A stretch of 64,000 nucleotides of DNA from Candidatus Latescibacterota bacterium (GTDB lineage Bacteria; Latescibacterota; CBDEFO01), in contig OZ252149.1 of the NCBI GenBank assembly GCA_965248755.1, forward strand, positions 3,616,001 through 3,680,000. The letters are read 5' to 3'. This document shows positions 7,385 through 64,000 of the stretch, in pieces; position 1 is the stretch's first letter, and each line of letters opens with the position of its first letter. The position numbers and the translations under genes were made by a program. The notes below the pieces were generated by a model. The model had not been told where the DNA came from, ran no database searches, and saw only the letters and a program-made list of their open reading frames with translations.

Positions 7385-7531
7385 GTGAGTGAGCAGGTCC
7401 CCGAAAGTCCCCGATAGGTTCAATCGGGGATAGATTTGACTGAAGGCAGGGAAAGGCAAGGGCAGACCAGTGTGTCTGCCCTGAAAATAACTTAGAGGCG
7501 AGGTAAACTCGCCCTTAAAGACAGGGGACAG

Positions 7532-7632
7532 ACCATCCAAGAGTGGCTGTGCCACAAGGACATCAGCACCACCATGATTTACACCCATGTCCTGAGTAAA
7601 AGCGGCCACGGAGTCCAGAGCCCCGTCGATGG
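7532..7632 (+). pseudogene. intI: Integron integrase C-terminal remnant
   Basis: Translates [33 protein letters not shown], matching the IntI consensus [33 protein letters not shown]; the rest of the gene is missing. Confidence 0.85.
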
Positions 7633-15416: not shown

Positions 15417-15891
15417 CCTCCACGTCCTTCCTTACAAAGTAAACGGCGGCCAGGAGGATAACACCCGCTGTGACCCACATATCGGCCATATTAAAGATGT
15501 ACCATCTTACATCGTTTATGCCTACATCCAGAAAGTCAATAACTTTTGAGAGTCTGATCCTGTCTATCAAATTGCCCAAGGCGCCGCCCAGGATCATAGC
15601 GAGCGCTATTTGGGTGGTGCCTCGATCCGTTGTGGGGCGCCATATCAGAAAACATACGAAGATTATGGCAAAGGCCGACAAGACGATGTGTACGGTATTT
15701 CCTCCAAGGGACAATCCGAAGGCGGCCCCCTCGTTATAGATGTAGGTGAGTTTGAAAAGGTCCCCGATGACGCTAATCGAATCACCGGGTCTCATATACT
15801 TTGAGACGATTACTTTGGACAGCTGATCCAAAATAAGCGTTGCCAAAAAGACCCAGAAAGCGTCTGATATATTTTCTGATTTTTCCCTCAT
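15358..15891 (-). CDS. lspA: Lipoprotein signal peptidase II
   Basis: NEGAAFG; GGALGNLIDR; FNMAD. Confidence 0.95.
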   Translation of the reverse strand: MREKSENISDAFWVFLATLILDQLSKVIVSKYMRPGDSISVIGDLFKLTYIYNEGAAFGLSLGGNTVHIVLSAFAIIFVCFLIWRPTTDRGTTQIALAMILGGALGNLIDRIRLSKVIDFLDVGINDVRWYIFNMADMWVTAGVILLAAVYFVRKDVEDGEKSRAPSLKEPVQRDTT

Positions 15892-52480: not shown

Positions 52481-52634
52481 AGTACTGAGTACTTCTGGTA
52501 TGCACGGTAAACTACAATCTGTAACCAGCGGCAGACAGAAGGGAGGTGATTAAGTCTATACCTGATCTGAAAGAACGTAGATAGAACTACAGATGTCAAA
52601 CGCTCATAAGCAGAAAAAGAAAAGGAGTGAAGTA

Positions 52635-53525
52635 ATGATAAAAACATTTTCAGTTTTGTCGTTGTCTGTAATGTGTGCTCTATTATCGCTTCAAGGCGTC
52701 GGTTATGCTCAGACTCACTTTACTGCCGTGGTGGATGTAGATCAGGAGGTTCCTGTTCCTGAAATTCCTGAGGGCCTCAATCCGACCGGAACAGGCTCGT
52801 TTACGCTCAATGACGACGAGACAGAGTTGACATTCCACATCACTGTCACAGACCTGAGCGGTCCAATGACCGCCGGCCATTTCCACATGGCTTCGGCGGG
52901 TGTGTCAGGTGGCGTCGTCCGCGGCTTTTCAGCGGATGAGGTCTCTGGAAACACCATATCCGGGGTCTGGAGCAGCGCAGACGCTGCGCCTCTTTTAGTG
53001 AATGAACTTCTGGCAGGTGATATCTACGTCAACATCCATACGGGCGATAATCCACCGGGTGAAATCAGAGGTCAGGTCCTGTCCACTACGGGCATCGGCT
53101 TCACAGCTATGGTGGATGTAGATCAGGCGGTTCCTGCTCCTGCAATTCCTGAGGGCCTCACTCCTACCGGGACAGGCTCGTTCACGCTTAACCCTGCACA
53201 GACAGAGTTGACGTTCCGCATCACTGTCACAGATCTGAGCGGTCCAATAACTGCTGCCCATTTCCACATGGCTCCGGCGGGTGAGGCAGGTGGCGTCGTC
53301 CGCGGTTTTTCAGCGGATGAGGTCTCTGGAAACACAATCTCTGGTGTCTGGAGCAGCACGGACGCTGCGCCTCTTTTAGTGGTTGAACTTCTGGCAGGTA
53401 CTATCTACGTGAACATCCATACAGGCGACAACCCACCGGGTGAGATCAGAGGACAGCTACTCGCCACTACCCCCACAGCAGTAGAACCTGCTACATGGGG
53501 TAAAATAAAGAGTTCTATTAAGTAA
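52635..53525 (+). CDS. Secreted tandem CHRD-domain protein with C-terminal AVEPATWGKIK motif
   Basis: Two copies of HFH...YVNIHT.DNPPGEIRGQ; signal peptide. Confidence 0.9.
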   Translation: MIKTFSVLSLSVMCALLSLQGVGYAQTHFTAVVDVDQEVPVPEIPEGLNPTGTGSFTLNDDETELTFHITVTDLSGPMTAGHFHMASAGVSGGVVRGFSADEVSGNTISGVWSSADAAPLLVNELLAGDIYVNIHTGDNPPGEIRGQVLSTTGIGFTAMVDVDQAVPAPAIPEGLTPTGTGSFTLNPAQTELTFRITVTDLSGPITAAHFHMAPAGEAGGVVRGFSADEVSGNTISGVWSSTDAAPLLVVELLAGTIYVNIHTGDNPPGEIRGQLLATTPTAVEPATWGKIKSSIK

Positions 53526-56907: not shown

Positions 56908-58545
56908 ATGACGAGAGCCGATCACAAAAAGATAGCCGAATTTATAAAACCTCCGCTGATGATGCTAATTATGCAGGATTCTTTAAGCCATAAAGCTATT
57001 GTAAAACTGTGTAATCTGTGTTCTCTTTCCTACGATGGGACCCGCACACAATCTATATCTACGGAAAATCTTATTATAGATCTTGTGGATGAGTTCTACG
57101 AAGATGAAGAAAACGCAAAGACTATTACAAAGGTTTTGGAAAAGGCTAACTCCAATACAGTGAGACAGGTAAACAGAACGTCAATTGACAAACTTGCAGA
57201 TCGTATGATGGAGAGCCCTAATCATAATATTGGAAGAGACCTCTTCGCCCTGGCAGTAGACGACCGTCCTGAGGCGAACGAACTCATAGACAACCTTGCA
57301 GAAGCTCTGCTCAAGGATGAACTCTTCAAGGAAATAGACGAGTCTATAGAGGATAACGATCTTGAGGGTGAGGATGTCCTGTTGGACAGACGCGAAAGGG
57401 AAAAGAACTTCTCCAAGGAGATAGATAAACTCCGCTCCCGGTTGGGAGATCTGCAGAGAAAGAACTCCGATTTGGAGAAAATGACAGCCCAATTCTCACA
57501 GGAGAGACGTGCGCTAAAAGGGAAGATAACCGACCTACAGAGAGAGCTTAATGCCTGCCTGAAGCGGGAAGCGGCCCTCAAGAGTGAGCACGCCAATCTC
57601 AAAGAGAAATTGGACGATTCTGTAACTAGTGAAGAGAAATCTTACTCTTCGTTGCCTCTTAACCAGGTGACCAAAGATATCAGGAAGATTCAGTACAGTT
57701 TGGAAAGAATGAATCGGAACGAGAATGTAAAGAGCGACGTCCCCAATCGCTTCGTAGAGGCTGTGGGACAGAGCATATCCCAGATCAAGAAGCTCTTATC
57801 TGAAAATGTCGCCCAGGGCAAAACCTACAAGGCTGAAGTAAAGAAGTACATAGACGATATCAGATCAGACCTTCAGGTCTTCCAGTCCGAAAACAGAAAG
57901 CTGATAGGAGCAGGGGAGAGTGGGTCTGCAAGGCCTAAAGGCGATGTCGACAGGATCGGTGTCTTCGTGGATGTTCAGAACATATTCTACGCGGCAAAAC
58001 AGTTCAACTCGAGGCTCGACTTTGAAAAGCTCCTCACGACAGTCAGCGATAACAGGAGGCTGATAAGGGCTATAGCCTACGTCGTCCAATCCCCTGAAGT
58101 AGATCAAAGCGGCTTTATCACAATGCTCCAGCAGAAAAACTACCAGGTCAAGCGCAAAGACCTGAGGCTCAGAAGTGATGGCTCGGCCAAAGGGGACTGG
58201 GATATGGGTATGGCCATAGATGTTATAAGCCTTGTGGACAAGCTGGATGTGGTAGTTCTAGTCAGCGGCGACGGCGACTTTGTGTCTTTGATCAACCTGG
58301 TCAAGACAATAGGCCCGAAGGTGGAGATCTACTCCTTCCAGCACAATACTGCCAGGGACCTGATTCAAGCGGCAGATGAATACTATCCAATAGAAGAGGG
58401 CCTCTTGCTCAGAATCGACACAGGTGGGGTGCCTGCTGCGAATGCTCCGACCGCTGTGAGTGGGACACCTAGGGCAAGTAGTGACTCCGTCAGCGCTGAG
58501 GTTGAATCTTCAGAGAGCCTCGATGAGAGCCAGATAGGACCGTAG
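56908..58545 (+). CDS. Coiled-coil protein with C-terminal NYN (LabA/DUF88) domain
   Basis: VFVDVQN; KGDWDMGMAID; SGDGDF. Confidence 0.88.
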   Translation: MTRADHKKIAEFIKPPLMMLIMQDSLSHKAIVKLCNLCSLSYDGTRTQSISTENLIIDLVDEFYEDEENAKTITKVLEKANSNTVRQVNRTSIDKLADRMMESPNHNIGRDLFALAVDDRPEANELIDNLAEALLKDELFKEIDESIEDNDLEGEDVLLDRREREKNFSKEIDKLRSRLGDLQRKNSDLEKMTAQFSQERRALKGKITDLQRELNACLKREAALKSEHANLKEKLDDSVTSEEKSYSSLPLNQVTKDIRKIQYSLERMNRNENVKSDVPNRFVEAVGQSISQIKKLLSENVAQGKTYKAEVKKYIDDIRSDLQVFQSENRKLIGAGESGSARPKGDVDRIGVFVDVQNIFYAAKQFNSRLDFEKLLTTVSDNRRLIRAIAYVVQSPEVDQSGFITMLQQKNYQVKRKDLRLRSDGSAKGDWDMGMAIDVISLVDKLDVVVLVSGDGDFVSLINLVKTIGPKVEIYSFQHNTARDLIQAADEYYPIEEGLLLRIDTGGVPAANAPTAVSGTPRASSDSVSAEVESSESLDESQIGP

Positions 58546-60467: not shown

Positions 60468-60893
60468 TTACGATGAATCCTTGCCCTCTGCCGGCCTCAG
60501 GGCTTCATCCACGCCGAAGCGTCTCTTAATTGTTATCAAAGCCACTACAATGGCTATAACTATGACGACAATCAGGGTTACGGTCAAAGGGACGTTGATC
60601 ACAGATTTCTGCATCTTTGTGATGTCCTCAAGCGCTATCGTGAGACTGAAGAAGTCAGGCTTCGGGGGATCTGACCCCGGCACCATTTTGGTGTAGCCCA
60701 TAAGGAGAACTTTCTCGGTTATCTTGCCTATTGTGCCCTCTATTACAGTTCTGTCTTTAAGCTCAATCGTGATATGGTTATCCTCCTCGGAGTTCTGGGC
60801 GTAAGGCTGAGACACGTCTACCTGTTTCGAGCATCCAATCCCGACGATAAGGAGAAAAGACAACATCAAAATTGATATCCCGCGGCTGGACAT
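60468..60893 (-). CDS. Hypothetical lipoprotein with C-terminal TM helix
   Basis: Lipobox VGIGC; GGAGG RBS. Confidence 0.65.
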   Translation of the reverse strand: MSSRGISILMLSFLLIVGIGCSKQVDVSQPYAQNSEEDNHITIELKDRTVIEGTIGKITEKVLLMGYTKMVPGSDPPKPDFFSLTIALEDITKMQKSVINVPLTVTLIVVIVIAIVVALITIKRRFGVDEALRPAEGKDSS

Positions 60894-61064
60894 TTGGCCC
60901 TCCCTTGTGAATTGTGAAAGATGGCTATTTTCTAAACAGTTATCTGTCCTGTCCTTTTCACAACTATTCAAATATATTCACCAATTACAATAACTAAGTT
61001 AAAATAGACATTTCCTTGCTTCTTATGCAAATAGTACTTTGAACCCCCGATTATGTTGCCGAAC
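60891..61064 (-). repeat. ~170-bp leader, copy 1 (direct repeat of 61534-61708)
   Basis: Near-identical sequence from the attC R' box to the start codon. Confidence 0.9.
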
Positions 61065-61115
61065 GCTCAGCATCACCTGCGAGCGGAGCGAGTCAGGTGC
61101 ATGCCGTTGTTAGAC
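61058..61115 (-). other. Integron attC site (58 bp)
   Basis: GTCTAAC-AACGG-CATGCACCTG ... CAGGTGATG-CTGAGC-GTTCGGC with an extrahelical G. Confidence 0.8.
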
Positions 61116-61124
61116 GATAGAGCT

Positions 61125-61336
61125 TCATAGCAATTCACGAAATTCTTCTTCTGACAAACCGGCATCATGCACAATACCTCCCATAGTATAGGAATTCACC
61201 GGATTGTGCCGCGGAATAGTGAGAATACGCACACCGTCACTCATCACGATGTGCTTACCCTGTCGAACGACACGAAAATCGGCCTTTCCAATGCCCGAAC
61301 GGCATTTTGATGATTGATACCTGGTATCTTTGGCGC
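61125..61336 (-). pseudogene. hicA: HicA toxin with lost start codon and a frameshift
   Basis: (GCG)PKIPGINHQNAVRALE / ADFRVVRQGKHIVMSDGVRILTIPRHNPVNSYTMGGIVHDAGL. Confidence 0.85.
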
Positions 61337-61338
61337 GC

Positions 61339-61536
61339 TCAGCCTACAACTTCGATTTCACGTATTACTGCATCCTCAAGCAGTTCATCACGAGCAGCGA
61401 GGTACTCACGGATCGCATTCTGGATATTCTCCAAAGCCTCTTCTTCTGTTACCCCTTGAGACCAACAACCTGGAAGCCCCGGTACGGAGACGCTGAAACC
61501 TTCTTCTGTTTCCTGAATTGCAATCTTGTATTCCAT
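61339..61536 (-). CDS. hicB: HicB-family antitoxin
   Basis: FSVSVPGLPGCWSQGVTEEEALENIQNAIREYL. Confidence 0.9.
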   Translation of the reverse strand: MEYKIAIQETEEGFSVSVPGLPGCWSQGVTEEEALENIQNAIREYLAARDELLEDAVIREIEVVG

Positions 61537-61708
61537 CTGGCTCTCTCCAGTGAACCGTGAAAGACGGCTATTTTTATGAACAGTTATCTGTCCTGTCCTT
61601 TTCACAACTATCTAAATATATTCACCAATTACAATAACTAAGTTAAAATAGATATTTCCTTGCTTCTTATGCAAATAGTACTTTGAACCCCCGATTATGT
61701 TGCCGAAA
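61534..61708 (-). repeat. ~170-bp leader, copy 2
   Basis: Direct repeat of 60891-61064. Confidence 0.9.
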
Positions 61709-61785
61709 GACAGGATCAGCCGACCGATTCCGCAGAGTGTAGCGGAACCGCGCGGTTTTGGGTCGGCTGGATGCTACTGTTAGAA
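61702..61785 (-). other. Integron attC-like site (84 bp) directly after the RT stop
   Basis: TTCTAAC-AGTAG-CATCCAGCCGACC ... GGTCGGCTGATC-CTGTC-TTTCGGC (R' degenerate). Confidence 0.7.
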
Positions 61786-61786
61786 A

Positions 61787-63310
61787 TCATAGTGCCTCTA
61801 ACACCCACTTTGATACCCATCTATCCGTAATCAAAGGAGAACTAGCCATAGTTAATTTAAGCCAATGCTTTTTTTCATCCCCCGGCAGAATATGAGCAGC
61901 ATATAAAATTGCTCTTCGATCCAAGTTGCCAACAGAAAAAATATCTGCTTTTTTATTTCTGACCCAACTCAAATCTTTGATAGTCACTGCAGCTCGCGCT
62001 TGATTTACAACGTTAGGTCCATTCATAACAAAAGCTTTTAGACTTCTATCGGACATTATCTTTTCATTTCGACTTAAATACCACTCAAACCAAAACCTAA
62101 CTAAATCTTGGTTCATAATTGGTGAGTCTGCCACCTTCCTTAAAGCGGAAATATGCTCATCAAGAAGGGCATCATCAGTAACCCTATCTAGATACAAGCA
62201 GACATCATTGATGACTGGTGCAAAAAATTCAAATTTATCAAGTAGTGTTTCAGCAAGCTCTGAGTATCCGTAGCTTCTTGCTTTTCTAATAAGACTCCTA
62301 GACAGACCTAGGTCTAAGTAATCTCGACTCAGAACCTTTTTTGCAGTTAGCTGTATTATTTCGTGCGCTTTTTCCTCGTCATCCTCAATCGGTACTTCAA
62401 TTTTTTGCTCTTCCCCAGAGTAAGGGTTAAATACCTCTAATGTTTTAAATAATTCAAGTTTTTCTATTTCGTAGCGGTTATGAAGAATTTCTTCAACGTA
62501 AGTTGGGCATTCTGTAATTCTTGTTTTTTCTGATGATAACGTGAGACGATGATTTTCATATAGGTACAGAGTTAGTCTGTCCAGAATTTCAAGTAGCTCC
62601 TCTTTTGAGTCCGAAAATATTCGGAAATCATCAACATACCTTATATGATCTACGCCTTTTCCTATTAGAAAATTATCAATATCAATAAATATTGCCTCTG
62701 ACATGATAATGCTTGCGGCTGGCCCAACAGGAACACCTTGTGAAGCCTTGGTATTTAATTTTAAGAAGAATTGTTCAATGTCGTCAGCTATTGGTTTTAA
62801 TTGAGGAGAAGCAAATTCGATAGCGTTATTTAGTCGATGCAGATATATCTGGTTATAGAAATCTGTAATATCAGTTACCAAAATGTATTGAAAACTAGTG
62901 GTTAGCTGTTCAGATCTTCTGGTAAATGCATCAAAACCATTACCAGATGCAAAGAAGCTACCACCATCTAAATGGATTCTATATGAATATGCCACATGCT
63001 GACCTATTGGAACCCGAGCATTTTCTATATCTTCGGCTATTTGATATGCCAACGCTGTATATACGATTGCATTCAATGGTTCTAATTGGTGTACTACCCT
63101 GAATGTTCCATCGGGTTTAAATGAAGTTTTTGTTACTAGAGGAAGAACCCAGTGTTTTTCTACGTTCTTGGATTTTAGCTCAGCCTTTACCTCATCCCAG
63201 CTATGCCATAGCGCATCATATTCTAAGGCCTTCGGAAAGAAATCTGAGGCGTAAAACTTTTGAATATGCTCCTTGGCAAATTCAAGAGAATCGTCTGTCA
63301 ATATACTCAT
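61787..63310 (-). CDS. Reverse transcriptase of UG/DRT (defence-associated) type with helical C-terminus
   Basis: KPDGTFR; DITDFYNQIYLHRL; QGVPVGPAAS; RYVDD; LSSEKT; AT-rich; no maturase, Cas1 or retron VTG motif seen. Confidence 0.88.
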   Translation of the reverse strand: MSILTDDSLEFAKEHIQKFYASDFFPKALEYDALWHSWDEVKAELKSKNVEKHWVLPLVTKTSFKPDGTFRVVHQLEPLNAIVYTALAYQIAEDIENARVPIGQHVAYSYRIHLDGGSFFASGNGFDAFTRRSEQLTTSFQYILVTDITDFYNQIYLHRLNNAIEFASPQLKPIADDIEQFFLKLNTKASQGVPVGPAASIIMSEAIFIDIDNFLIGKGVDHIRYVDDFRIFSDSKEELLEILDRLTLYLYENHRLTLSSEKTRITECPTYVEEILHNRYEIEKLELFKTLEVFNPYSGEEQKIEVPIEDDEEKAHEIIQLTAKKVLSRDYLDLGLSRSLIRKARSYGYSELAETLLDKFEFFAPVINDVCLYLDRVTDDALLDEHISALRKVADSPIMNQDLVRFWFEWYLSRNEKIMSDRSLKAFVMNGPNVVNQARAAVTIKDLSWVRNKKADIFSVGNLDRRAILYAAHILPGDEKKHWLKLTMASSPLITDRWVSKWVLEAL

Positions 63311-63326
63311 ATCTTTCCTTGTTGAC

Positions 63327-63510
63327 TTCTAACTAGGGCTTATACAGTTTTCTATGCTATGAACCTATATACAGCTATTTGAGCTATATAAGACCCCACT
63401 GAAATGTTAAGAAAAAACCTGTAATATTAAAAATATCATTCTGTTAAGTCATAATTACCATAAGTTTTGTAGGAATTATATACAGACTGTATAAAACCCA
63501 AATTCAACGT
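63327..63510 (-). other. Inverted-repeat-bounded AT-rich platform upstream of the RT (attI-like and/or structured ncRNA)
   Basis: GGGTTTTATACAGT ... ACTGTATAAGCCC-TA-GTTAGAA; internal hairpins. Confidence 0.5.
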
Positions 63511-63516
63511 CATTTC

Positions 63517-64000
63517 CTACAGATTCAGCTCCCTGATGATCTCTATCACCCTCTTTTGGATACTCTCTGTCTTGACTTTCTCCACCTCTTTGGTTGACCT
63601 GTGCCTGACCTCAACGATACCCTCTTTCAGACCGCGCTCCCCGATTGTGAGCCTTATGGGGATGCCTAAAAGGTCAGCGTCTTTGAACTTGGTTCCGGGT
63701 CTTTCGTCTCTGTCGTCAAAAAGGACGTCGAAGCCTTCGGACTGGAGGTCGCAATATATCTTTTCTGAAATGTCCAGAGTCTCTCTGTGCGAGACGTTCA
63801 CAGGCAATATGTGGACATGATAAGGCGCGATTGAGATAGGCCAGACGATTCCGTCCTCATCTGCGTCCTGGTCTATGACAGCCGCCATTACCCTTTCGAG
63901 GCCAATTCCGTAGCTGCCCATAACTATGGGTTTGGCCCGCCCCTTTGAGTCGAGGAAGGTGGCCCCTAAAGCCTTCGAGTACTTGGTGCCCAGTTTGAAT
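63517..64000 (-). CDS. proS: Proline--tRNA ligase, 3' part
   Basis: MGSYGIGLER; WPISIAPY; DDRDERPGTKFKDADLLGIP. Confidence 0.95.
   Translation of the reverse strand, partial: FKLGTKYSKALGATFLDSKGRAKPIVMGSYGIGLERVMAAVIDQDADEDGIVWPISIAPYHVHILPVNVSHRETLDISEKIYCDLQSEGFDVLFDDRDERPGTKFKDADLLGIPIRLTIGERGLKEGIVEVRHRSTKEVEKVKTESIQKRVIEIIRELNL

Follow-up and report, generated by a model that had tools for sequence, protein, structure and literature searches.

The stretch analysed here (hereafter the window) comprises 64,000 nucleotides of Candidatus Latescibacterota bacterium contig OZ252149.1 (assembly GCA_965248755.1, positions 3,616,001 to 3,680,000, forward strand) and carries near its end, on the minus strand, a gene for a reverse transcriptase (RT) of 507 residues. 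This RT is an intact member of a named family, UG7 or DRT type 8 (DRT8), in its already described form without a partner gene, and the locus itself is no new system. By origin it is almost certainly a true one-gene integron cassette of that family. The cassette can be regarded as a natural minimal-unit experiment, in which the attI and attC cores bracket all the cargo, with 16 bp before and 1 bp after the gene. Taking together the family, the cassette and the chemistry proposed from related enzymes, we consider it probable that the partner-less UG7 protein works as a single-gene anti-phage enzyme. The parts of the gene and the cassette are the following.

61787..63310, minus strand: UG7/DRT8 reverse-transcriptase-like gene, 507 residues, partner-less branch (open reading frame, PADLOC profile, tree)
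62627..62638, minus strand: YVDD catalytic motif, residues 225-228 (translation of the open reading frame, alignment)
61790..62380, minus strand: all-helical C-terminal domain, residues 311-507, modelled as the class 1 alpha-repeat domain (structure model, structural alignments)
63327..63333, minus strand: recombination core GTTAGAA, where the RT cassette starts (sequence)
61702..61785, minus strand: attC of the RT cassette, with inverse core TTCTAAC, an L-box stem with an extra base and a non-consensus right core (TTT) (fold)

Family placement and fold

Among the PADLOC profiles, Drt8 matched the protein over nearly its full length (468 bits, E 1e-140; residues 4-504 aligned to positions 2-490 of a model of 493). 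The runner-up was UG21 with 116 bits, and Drt9 lay outside the best 25 of the 74 models, thus below 50.7 bits. No NCBIfam model passed its cut-off for the RT (Drt4, 89 of 450 bits; AbiA, 32 of 250 bits), and Pfam detected RVT_1 alone. A preliminary description, made from the letters of the window only, had recognised a defence-type UG/Abi RT, which the full-length Drt8 match bears out, and had likened it to UG28/DRT9, an identity that we rejected on the profile score, on structural alignments limited to the core and on the lack of a shared upstream RNA. Placement by hidden Markov model (HMM) and by tree gave UG7/DRT8 and not DRT9.

The structure model of the RT was built from a 48-sequence alignment (pLDDT 85.9). 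Its RT core ends near residue 278, the loop at residues 280-303 has low confidence, and from residue 311 onward the chain is all-helical. The best five rows of the Foldseek search were DRT6 and DRT4/UG15 (TMq 0.56-0.64), with DRT9 at TMq 0.38-0.43. With a second aligner, a whole-chain alignment (384-455 residues) was obtained only for DRT6, DRT4, AbiK, Abi-P2, and AbiA; the RTs of group II introns and of diversity-generating retroelements tied for the top on the core alone (Z ~20-21), and DRT9 and DRT2 superposed over 244-255 core residues only. As modelled, the RT is a class 1 UG/Abi RT in which a helical repeat domain replaces the thumb.

The tree was calculated with FastTree on 67 rows (even-step picks and chosen loci, with UG19-23 left out) and carries a long-branch warning. 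The 62 UG7-like rows were set apart from the 5 DRT4-like outgroup rows with SH-like support of 100. The RT fell among relatives in which the search had revealed no partner (branch support 94, inner node 100), beside a Methylomonas protein of 64% identity, and all five nuclease-paired RTs included in the tree formed a separate branch (support 97). The RT is 26% identical to the nuclease-paired RT of locus L152.

UG7 was named DRT type 8 in 2022 by Mestre et al. (PMC9226505). As stated in the available part of that work, the family has one variant with a PD-(D/E)XK nuclease (150 members) and another without associated gene (165 members) and is enriched in defence islands; the nuclease-paired DRT8 was tested and protects against T5, the active sites of both RT and nuclease being needed (PMC9226505). 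The proposal of an undescribed system falls on this account, since the partner-less variant was already described there. We assign the RT to that variant on the HMM score, the gene context and the tree rather than on an accession match. One UG7 row in the accessible part of the supplement of PMC9226505 shows a similar motif, and organism and motif searches of that part gave no match to the RT. Full-length Drt8 matches were present in 3 of the 151 genomes of the host phylum, this genome included, and in the sister genome of the same genus (G406) there was none. Relatives of the RT were absent from the phage collection searched and one was found in the viral contigs.

Cassette boundaries and attC

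The reading frame runs uninterrupted from 63310 to 61787 with 0 internal stops, which confirms the intact 507-residue RT with a YVDD motif given in the preliminary description, and the two aspartates of this motif (D227 and D228) are kept in 84 of 84 dereplicated relatives. The core GTTAGAA ends 16 bp ahead of the ATG of the RT, and the TGA stop is followed by 1 base and then by TTCTAAC at 61785-61779. Both heptamers are exact complements and match the GTTRRRY/RYYYAAC scheme except for the last base, which is off the Y/R consensus. Folding of the bottom strand at 61785-61702 (84 nt) gave a long attC-like stem in which one base is unpaired (-16.7 kcal/mol, z -2.63), and 4 of 200 shuffles folded as well as this site did. 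The one-gene cassette proposed at the outset is thus upheld by its two cores and by the attC hairpin.

We also looked at how often this form appears among relatives. From 151 loci, 41 were dropped as partial, leaving 110 in which the gene is complete and the flanks are long enough. In 13 of these 110 loci the gene is closely framed by an exact pair of core and inverse core, against 0.8 +/- 0.9 (maximum 3) in 200 random pairings. Since flanks paired at random give about 0.8 exact pairs per 110 loci, the match at the RT is not due to chance. Some of the 13 loci are near-duplicates; the members borne on cassettes occur at scattered points of the branch, and their attC sites differ. Because this minimal packaging recurs in 13 of the 110 relatives, the partner-less branch would need neither a cis RNA nor a partner, and the gene boundaries argue that it travels without either of them. 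Compact defence systems of one or two genes are enriched in integron cassettes, according to the available text of bioRxiv 10.1101/2024.07.02.601686.

The right core of the RT attC reads TTTCGGC (61708-61702) and lacks the GTT that is consensus at this position (PMC12901181); the 3 other copies of the same downstream sequence read GTTCGGC. Contigs assembled from runs X1 and X2 span 61678-63360 and 61678-63357 with 0 differences, the RT gene and the attC site included; both runs belong to one public sample, possibly the source sample. The G+C content is 37% in the RT gene and 49% genome-wide. Because the genome has no intact intI and the attC core is non-consensus, the RT cassette is probably fixed in place and would be poorly excisable now.

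Not all relatives share the cassette setting. In four loci (L029, L034, L073, and L075; Haemophilus and metagenomes) the RT lies about 20 bp past a gene for a 1230-residue methionine-synthase-like protein, as read by eye, and since the four have this context in common, a UG7 RT can also be a settled chromosomal gene. In L049 and L050 (Photobacterium and Vibrio) a UG7 RT of the partner-less branch stands between an open reading frame of 422 residues with a nucleotidyltransferase-like motif (by eye) and a hydrophobic one of 204-227 residues; perhaps it is embedded there in another defence operon. Moreover, some UG7-like RTs, which are representatives of 50% clusters, have 300-650 extra N-terminal residues (P0132, P0148, P0156, P0164, and P0173, of 830-880 residues, and P0200, of 1183), and it is possible that these are fused-effector forms of DRT8.

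The attI-type platform and exchange of the slot

Upstream of the cassette there is an AT-rich region that joins it to a housekeeping gene.

63517..64000, minus strand: 3' end of proS, a prolyl-tRNA synthetase-type class II synthetase (Pfam HGTP_anticodon and tRNA-synt_2b; named proS after these domains)
63334..63516, minus strand: attI-type platform, 29% G+C, without intI here; in integrons of its type attI is 3' of a same-strand intI (genome matches)

The platform begins at the stop codon of proS, at a TGTAG that it has in common with the intI stop. The 190 bp upstream of the cassette had 13 matches in this genome, itself included, and 20 in G406. The others in this genome are at 15578, 20452, 21145, 22421, 184189, 213179, 291059, 380960, 1397621, 1514376, 2460642, and 3502207. 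In 12 of the 13 the match reaches the GTT core, where the likeness ends and unrelated genes follow, and the 5' ends vary. Three copies follow same-strand 3' remnants of an integron integrase (intI). No intact intI was detected, as TIGR02249 gave 0 matches over the cut-off in this genome and in G406, with 3' fragments only. From this arrangement we infer that the platform is an attI-type site, and horizontal acquisition of the RT as an integron cassette, in first position at an orphan attI-type site, forms part of the overall explanation that we hold to be probable.

In the slot of G406 the same synthetase gene and platform are followed by a 271-residue SPFH cassette, which replaces the RT, and then by the same hicBA, attC and tail. 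Contigs of runs X4 and X6, from two other samples, cover the flanks without the RT, and in an X6 contig position 61551 is joined to 63326 via other sequence. Because of the SPFH cassette in G406 and of these contigs, the RT cassette is to be seen as an exchangeable occupant of the slot, and the platform as part of the slot and not of the RT.

The preliminary description had also suggested that the RT might borrow the transcript of the upstream platform. The platform is not shared among the RT relatives and elsewhere in this genome follows no RT. The upstream RNA of 209 nt folds at -41 kcal/mol with z -1.29, not clearly better than shuffles. We rejected the platform as a template on these grounds: its 13 genomic copies mostly precede unrelated genes, it is unshared by the RT relatives, an SPFH gene stands behind it in G406, and its fold hardly stands out from shuffles. 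No terminator-like site was found between proS and the RT.

In both genomes, which lack an intact intI, copies of the attI type are scattered over the chromosome and share the GTT core as their constant 3' end. Partial 3' fragments of TIGR02249 were also seen at window positions ~7529-7630 (genome 3623529-3623630) and at genome 3695674-3695950, and about 470 bp after the former there is a short platform-like match on the opposite strand.

Search for a cis RNA

Upstream flanks of 250 nt were compared by blastn between relatives of less than 85% RT identity, and 1 of 3963 pairs shared sequence, a comparison that is blind to an RNA conserved in structure only and to a host RNA acting in trans. 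Downstream, 8 of 3616 pairs did so, all 8 starting right after the stop, at the position of attC. Rfam gave nothing at gathering score, the 4 matches with E up to 5 being all far below it. In 17 of the 54 relatives with a long upstream open reading frame, the upstream gap is of 60 nt at most. The view that the locus neither has space for a cis noncoding RNA nor shows signs of one is supported by the unshared flanks, these short gaps and the blank Rfam search, and the alignment of upstream regions of homologs, suggested earlier, revealed no common upstream sequence. No noncoding RNA of a characterised DRT clade matched upstream, the DRT9 RNA model itself not having been run. An RNA element inside the coding sequence was considered as well and rejected: four-fold degenerate sites across 54 genes were flat at 0.27, without a conserved patch, and the best window reached 0.31 (p 0.04, 500 shuffles), too small for a signal. 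With no shared cis RNA found, the RT is probably RNA-independent, as had been put forward among other options.

Search for a partner gene

The 151 relative loci (71 genomic and 80 metagenomic) come from hosts of several phyla. When the two nearest open reading frames on each side were clustered in loci with a complete gene, no recurring neighbour family appeared apart from one group of four loci, whose contexts are nearly identical, and some scattered pairs. The PD-(D/E)XK gene of the two-gene DRT8 (RTasPDDEXK) is absent at the locus, where the cassette ends 1 bp past the stop. The PADLOC nuclease model PDLC03797, which recovered 7 of 7 tested partners at 203-243 bits, had 0 matches in the RT's own genome (98% complete) and was likewise unmatched in the relatives' genomes (0 of 50, drawn from the 71 genomic loci, some of the genomes being incomplete), while it detected the control genome G123. 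A search for additional nuclease-paired loci found them in 0 of 400 Gammaproteobacteria-class genomes and had no positive-control match. The DRT8 nuclease is rare in general, and few contexts are available for the nuclease-paired branch. We therefore rejected a conserved partner gene, given the lack of both a shared neighbour family among relatives and the nuclease in the host genomes; close homologs do not need a partner that would be missing here.

Proposed mechanism and candidate residues

The class 1 enzymes closest in fold offer a chemistry for the partner-less UG7 protein. According to the available texts of three reports (bioRxiv 10.64898/2026.10.21.760695; PMC12783706; bioRxiv 10.64898/2026.10.27.754916), AbiK, Abi-P2, AbiA, DRT4, and DRT6 synthesise DNA without template, primed on a residue of their own; AbiK, DRT4, and DRT6 are hexamers; and DRT4 is triggered by phage SSB-like proteins and by rises in deoxynucleoside triphosphates (dNTPs), after which it cleaves RNA. 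The RNase site of DRT4 is given as H160/D192 (available text of bioRxiv 10.64898/2026.10.21.760695) and its priming residue as Y125 (available text of PMC12783706), and the priming residues of AbiA, Y298/Y303, are part of the flexible loop that links its RT domain to the helical one (available text of PMC11077055). The corresponding candidate residues of the RT are listed here.

62420..62422, minus strand: Y297, in the loop of low confidence at 280-303, a candidate for the priming tyrosine (model, alignment)
62837..62839, minus strand: H158, aligned with H160 of the DRT4 RNase site (alignment)
62774..62776, minus strand: E179, aligned gap-free with D192 of the DRT4 RNase site (alignment)

In the mechanism that we propose, the partner-less UG7 protein would oligomerise and synthesise single-stranded DNA without template, covalently primed on its own residue, most likely Y297. 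A phage replication protein (SSB-like), raised dNTPs or both would then act on the DNA-protein adduct, with the result that the cell stops growing or that phage replication is blocked. In the absence of a partner nuclease, the role of effector would have to fall to the UG7 protein, to the DNA that it makes or to some general factor of the host. By analogy with the related enzymes, template-free and protein-primed synthesis is the likeliest of these elements; that the RT is active alone in defence is a prediction with good chances; and Y297 as the priming residue is a candidate that we favour slightly. To locate conserved residues, 195 UG7-like proteins were aligned in three similarity groups (99 near the RT, 45 near L152, and 51 others). 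These groups have Y297 in 88 of 99, 45 of 45, and 46 of 51 members, respectively, and no other residue past position 263 is kept at 85% at least in all three.

Several points weigh against this mechanism. Y297 is replaced in 11 of the 99 close relatives (by P, F, and others), some of these being perhaps alignment slips, and priming sites differ among class 1 enzymes, as illustrated by DRT4 Y125 in the available text of PMC12783706. Some class 1 enzymes are protein-templated or base-biased and not random, according to the parts available of PMC13213688 and bioRxiv 10.64898/2026.10.27.754916, so that the UG7 product may or may not be random in sequence. The only DRT8 that was tested needed its nuclease (PMC9226505, available part). 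An RNA conserved in structure only, or a host RNA acting in trans, lies outside what the blastn comparison of flanks detects. Finally, a promoter scan gave no sigma-70 site directed into the cassette.

Four other explanations were weighed against the single-gene enzyme. The one most deserving attention, which we nevertheless judge unlikely, is that partner-less UG7 contains an effector of its own: H158 and E179 of different subunits would together make up an RNase site like that of DRT4, for which the nuclease-paired branch has no need; the pair itself is a tentative candidate for a built-in RNase. E179 is located 13 residues ahead of the G-x-P-x-G motif, exactly as DRT4 D192 and gap-free, and a D occupies the equivalent position in DRT6 and Abi-P2 too. 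The position is E in 97 of the 99 proteins near the RT and acidic in 6 of the 45 near L152 and 11 of the 51 others, but the first group was defined by likeness to the RT protein, which inflates the conservation, and of the 45 L152-like members a single one has a known gene context. Moreover, nuclease-paired L193 and L194 carry D at 179, whereas the distant partner-less L059, L061, L063, L065, and L150 carry K; H158 is kept in 41 of the 45 members of the nuclease-paired-like group and is hence non-specific, and the two residues may be structural. A broader version, that UG7 is a self-contained sensor-effector in which Y297-primed template-free DNA (a site common to the family) is coupled to RNA cleavage by H158/E179 and that the two-gene branch hands the effector role to the DNase-fold protein, seems to us somewhat less probable still; if true, UG7 would offer a natural pair in which one polymerase scaffold has exchanged its effector, and the compact form would travel by integron cassette.

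It is improbable that the RT cassette is silent cargo, intact but unexpressed or non-defensive and stranded in a decayed integron. In its favour are the lack of an intact intI in this genome and G406, the non-consensus attC core, the neighbouring frameshifted hicA and the absence of a promoter-like site into the RT gene. Against it, frame and catalytic residues of the RT are intact, the gene holds first position after the AT-rich platform, the housekeeping gene immediately upstream is on its strand, no terminator-like site was found in between, and UG7 is enriched in defence islands (available part of PMC9226505). Dependence of the RT on a nuclease or another factor from some other locus of the host, an idea of Mestre et al. 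for the partner-less variant, has a still smaller chance in our opinion: mutation of PD-(D/E)XK abolished defence in the tested DRT8 and its authors raised action in trans (PMC9226505, part available), but the cognate nuclease family was found in 0 of 51 genomes with this UG7 branch, some incomplete, and with hosts in several phyla a trans factor would need to be nearly universal. The remaining explanation, an RNA-templated enzyme of DRT9/UG28 type using the platform transcript or another RNA, is very improbable. The length of the RT is close to that of DRT9, the 209-nt upstream RNA is foldable and a trans host RNA would escape the sequence tests; against this stand the rank of Drt9 among the models, the low TMq of DRT9 with its core-only superposition, a platform generic to 13 places with no RT behind the others, the fold z and the unshared flanks of relatives.

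Comparison with known systems

The partner-less UG7 variant described in PMC9226505 resembles the RT in its family by HMM, in its class 1 architecture and in the lack of an associated gene, and no noncoding RNA was predicted for UG7 in the part available. Here the gene is delimited as an integron cassette, whereas that paper has 0 occurrences of the word integron in its main text. With the tested DRT8, composed of a UG7 RT and a PD-(D/E)XK nuclease, the RT has in common the family, an [ND]PYS loop motif and the core motifs; unlike it, the RT is on a separate branch, is distant from L152 in sequence and has no nuclease in locus or genome.

DRT4 (UG15) and DRT6 (UG12) are the closest solved folds and are likewise single genes for an RT with a helical domain, although identity is 14-17% and the RT scores under the NCBIfam Drt4 cut-off. 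A His and an acidic residue occupy the positions of the DRT4 RNase pair, but there is no conserved tyrosine at the position of Y125, UG7 column 126 being W/Y/F. The AbiA of Lactococcus and the RT both have a conserved tyrosine in the flexible loop between RT and helical domains (Y298/Y303 in AbiA, Y297 here), a match by domain order and disorder and not by residue-level superposition. Unlike AbiA, the RT has no HEPN domain, and it also scores far under the AbiA cut-off. With DRT9 (UG28) it shares a length of about 500 residues and the condition of anti-phage UG/Abi RT, but DRT9 needs a conserved upstream noncoding RNA, which is absent here, and the RT core alone superposes.

Compact defence in cassette form is shared with the anti-phage integron cassettes of bioRxiv 10.1101/2024.07.02.601686, in whose main text, as far as available, no DRT or RT is named. 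Truncated copies of attI are known from delta-attI arrangements (PMC12901181), whereas here attI-type copies are spread over the chromosome without intact intI. A 2026 overview (PMC13213688, available text) regards the mechanism of DRT8 as 'not yet established'. Our literature search found neither a mechanistic study of DRT8 nor a report of DRT8 cassettes in the texts available, and supplements may list such cassettes. The comparison names Y297, H158, and E179 as the residues that make the mechanism directly testable.

Downstream genes and other features

Behind the RT attC the slot continues with a repeated tail and a hicBA cassette.

61534..61707, minus strand: first copy of an AT-rich tail of about 170 bp (repeat comparison)
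61339..61536, minus strand: hicB-like antitoxin gene, intact (Pfam HicB_lk_antitox)
61125..61340, minus strand: hicA-like gene, frameshifted at ~61284, start approximate (Pfam HicA_toxin below cut-off on the 3' part)
61058..61115, minus strand: second attC, of the hicBA cassette, with consensus GTT core and a weak fold, z -0.55 (sequence, fold)
60891..61063, minus strand: second copy of the tail, running into the gene that follows (60893-60468) (repeat comparison)

The tail, of 100-170 bp and starting with TTCGGC, follows the last attC at four places of the genome (two in the window; genome 20218 and 24092), and its first copy joins hicB at the ribosome-binding site. It may be the right half of an empty attI or a gene-less terminal cassette. 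The frameshift in hicA is a one-base difference, present in this strain and in X1/X2 and not in G406 or in the X4/X6 contigs. The simplest history of the slot that we infer is recombination of a platform-RT-tail allele with a platform-SPFH-hicBA-tail allele.

Elsewhere in the genome, an identical string of 119 nt was found at 11 places (e.g., 574102, 2000665, 2336309, and 3009965), probably part of a multi-copy mobile element or of a repeated gene. Within the window, 52593-53525 encodes a secreted protein of 310 residues with two internal repeats and a C-terminal WGKIK-type motif, and 56908-58545, downstream of a coaD-like gene, encodes a coiled-coil protein of 545 residues with a C-terminal NYN domain (Pfam).

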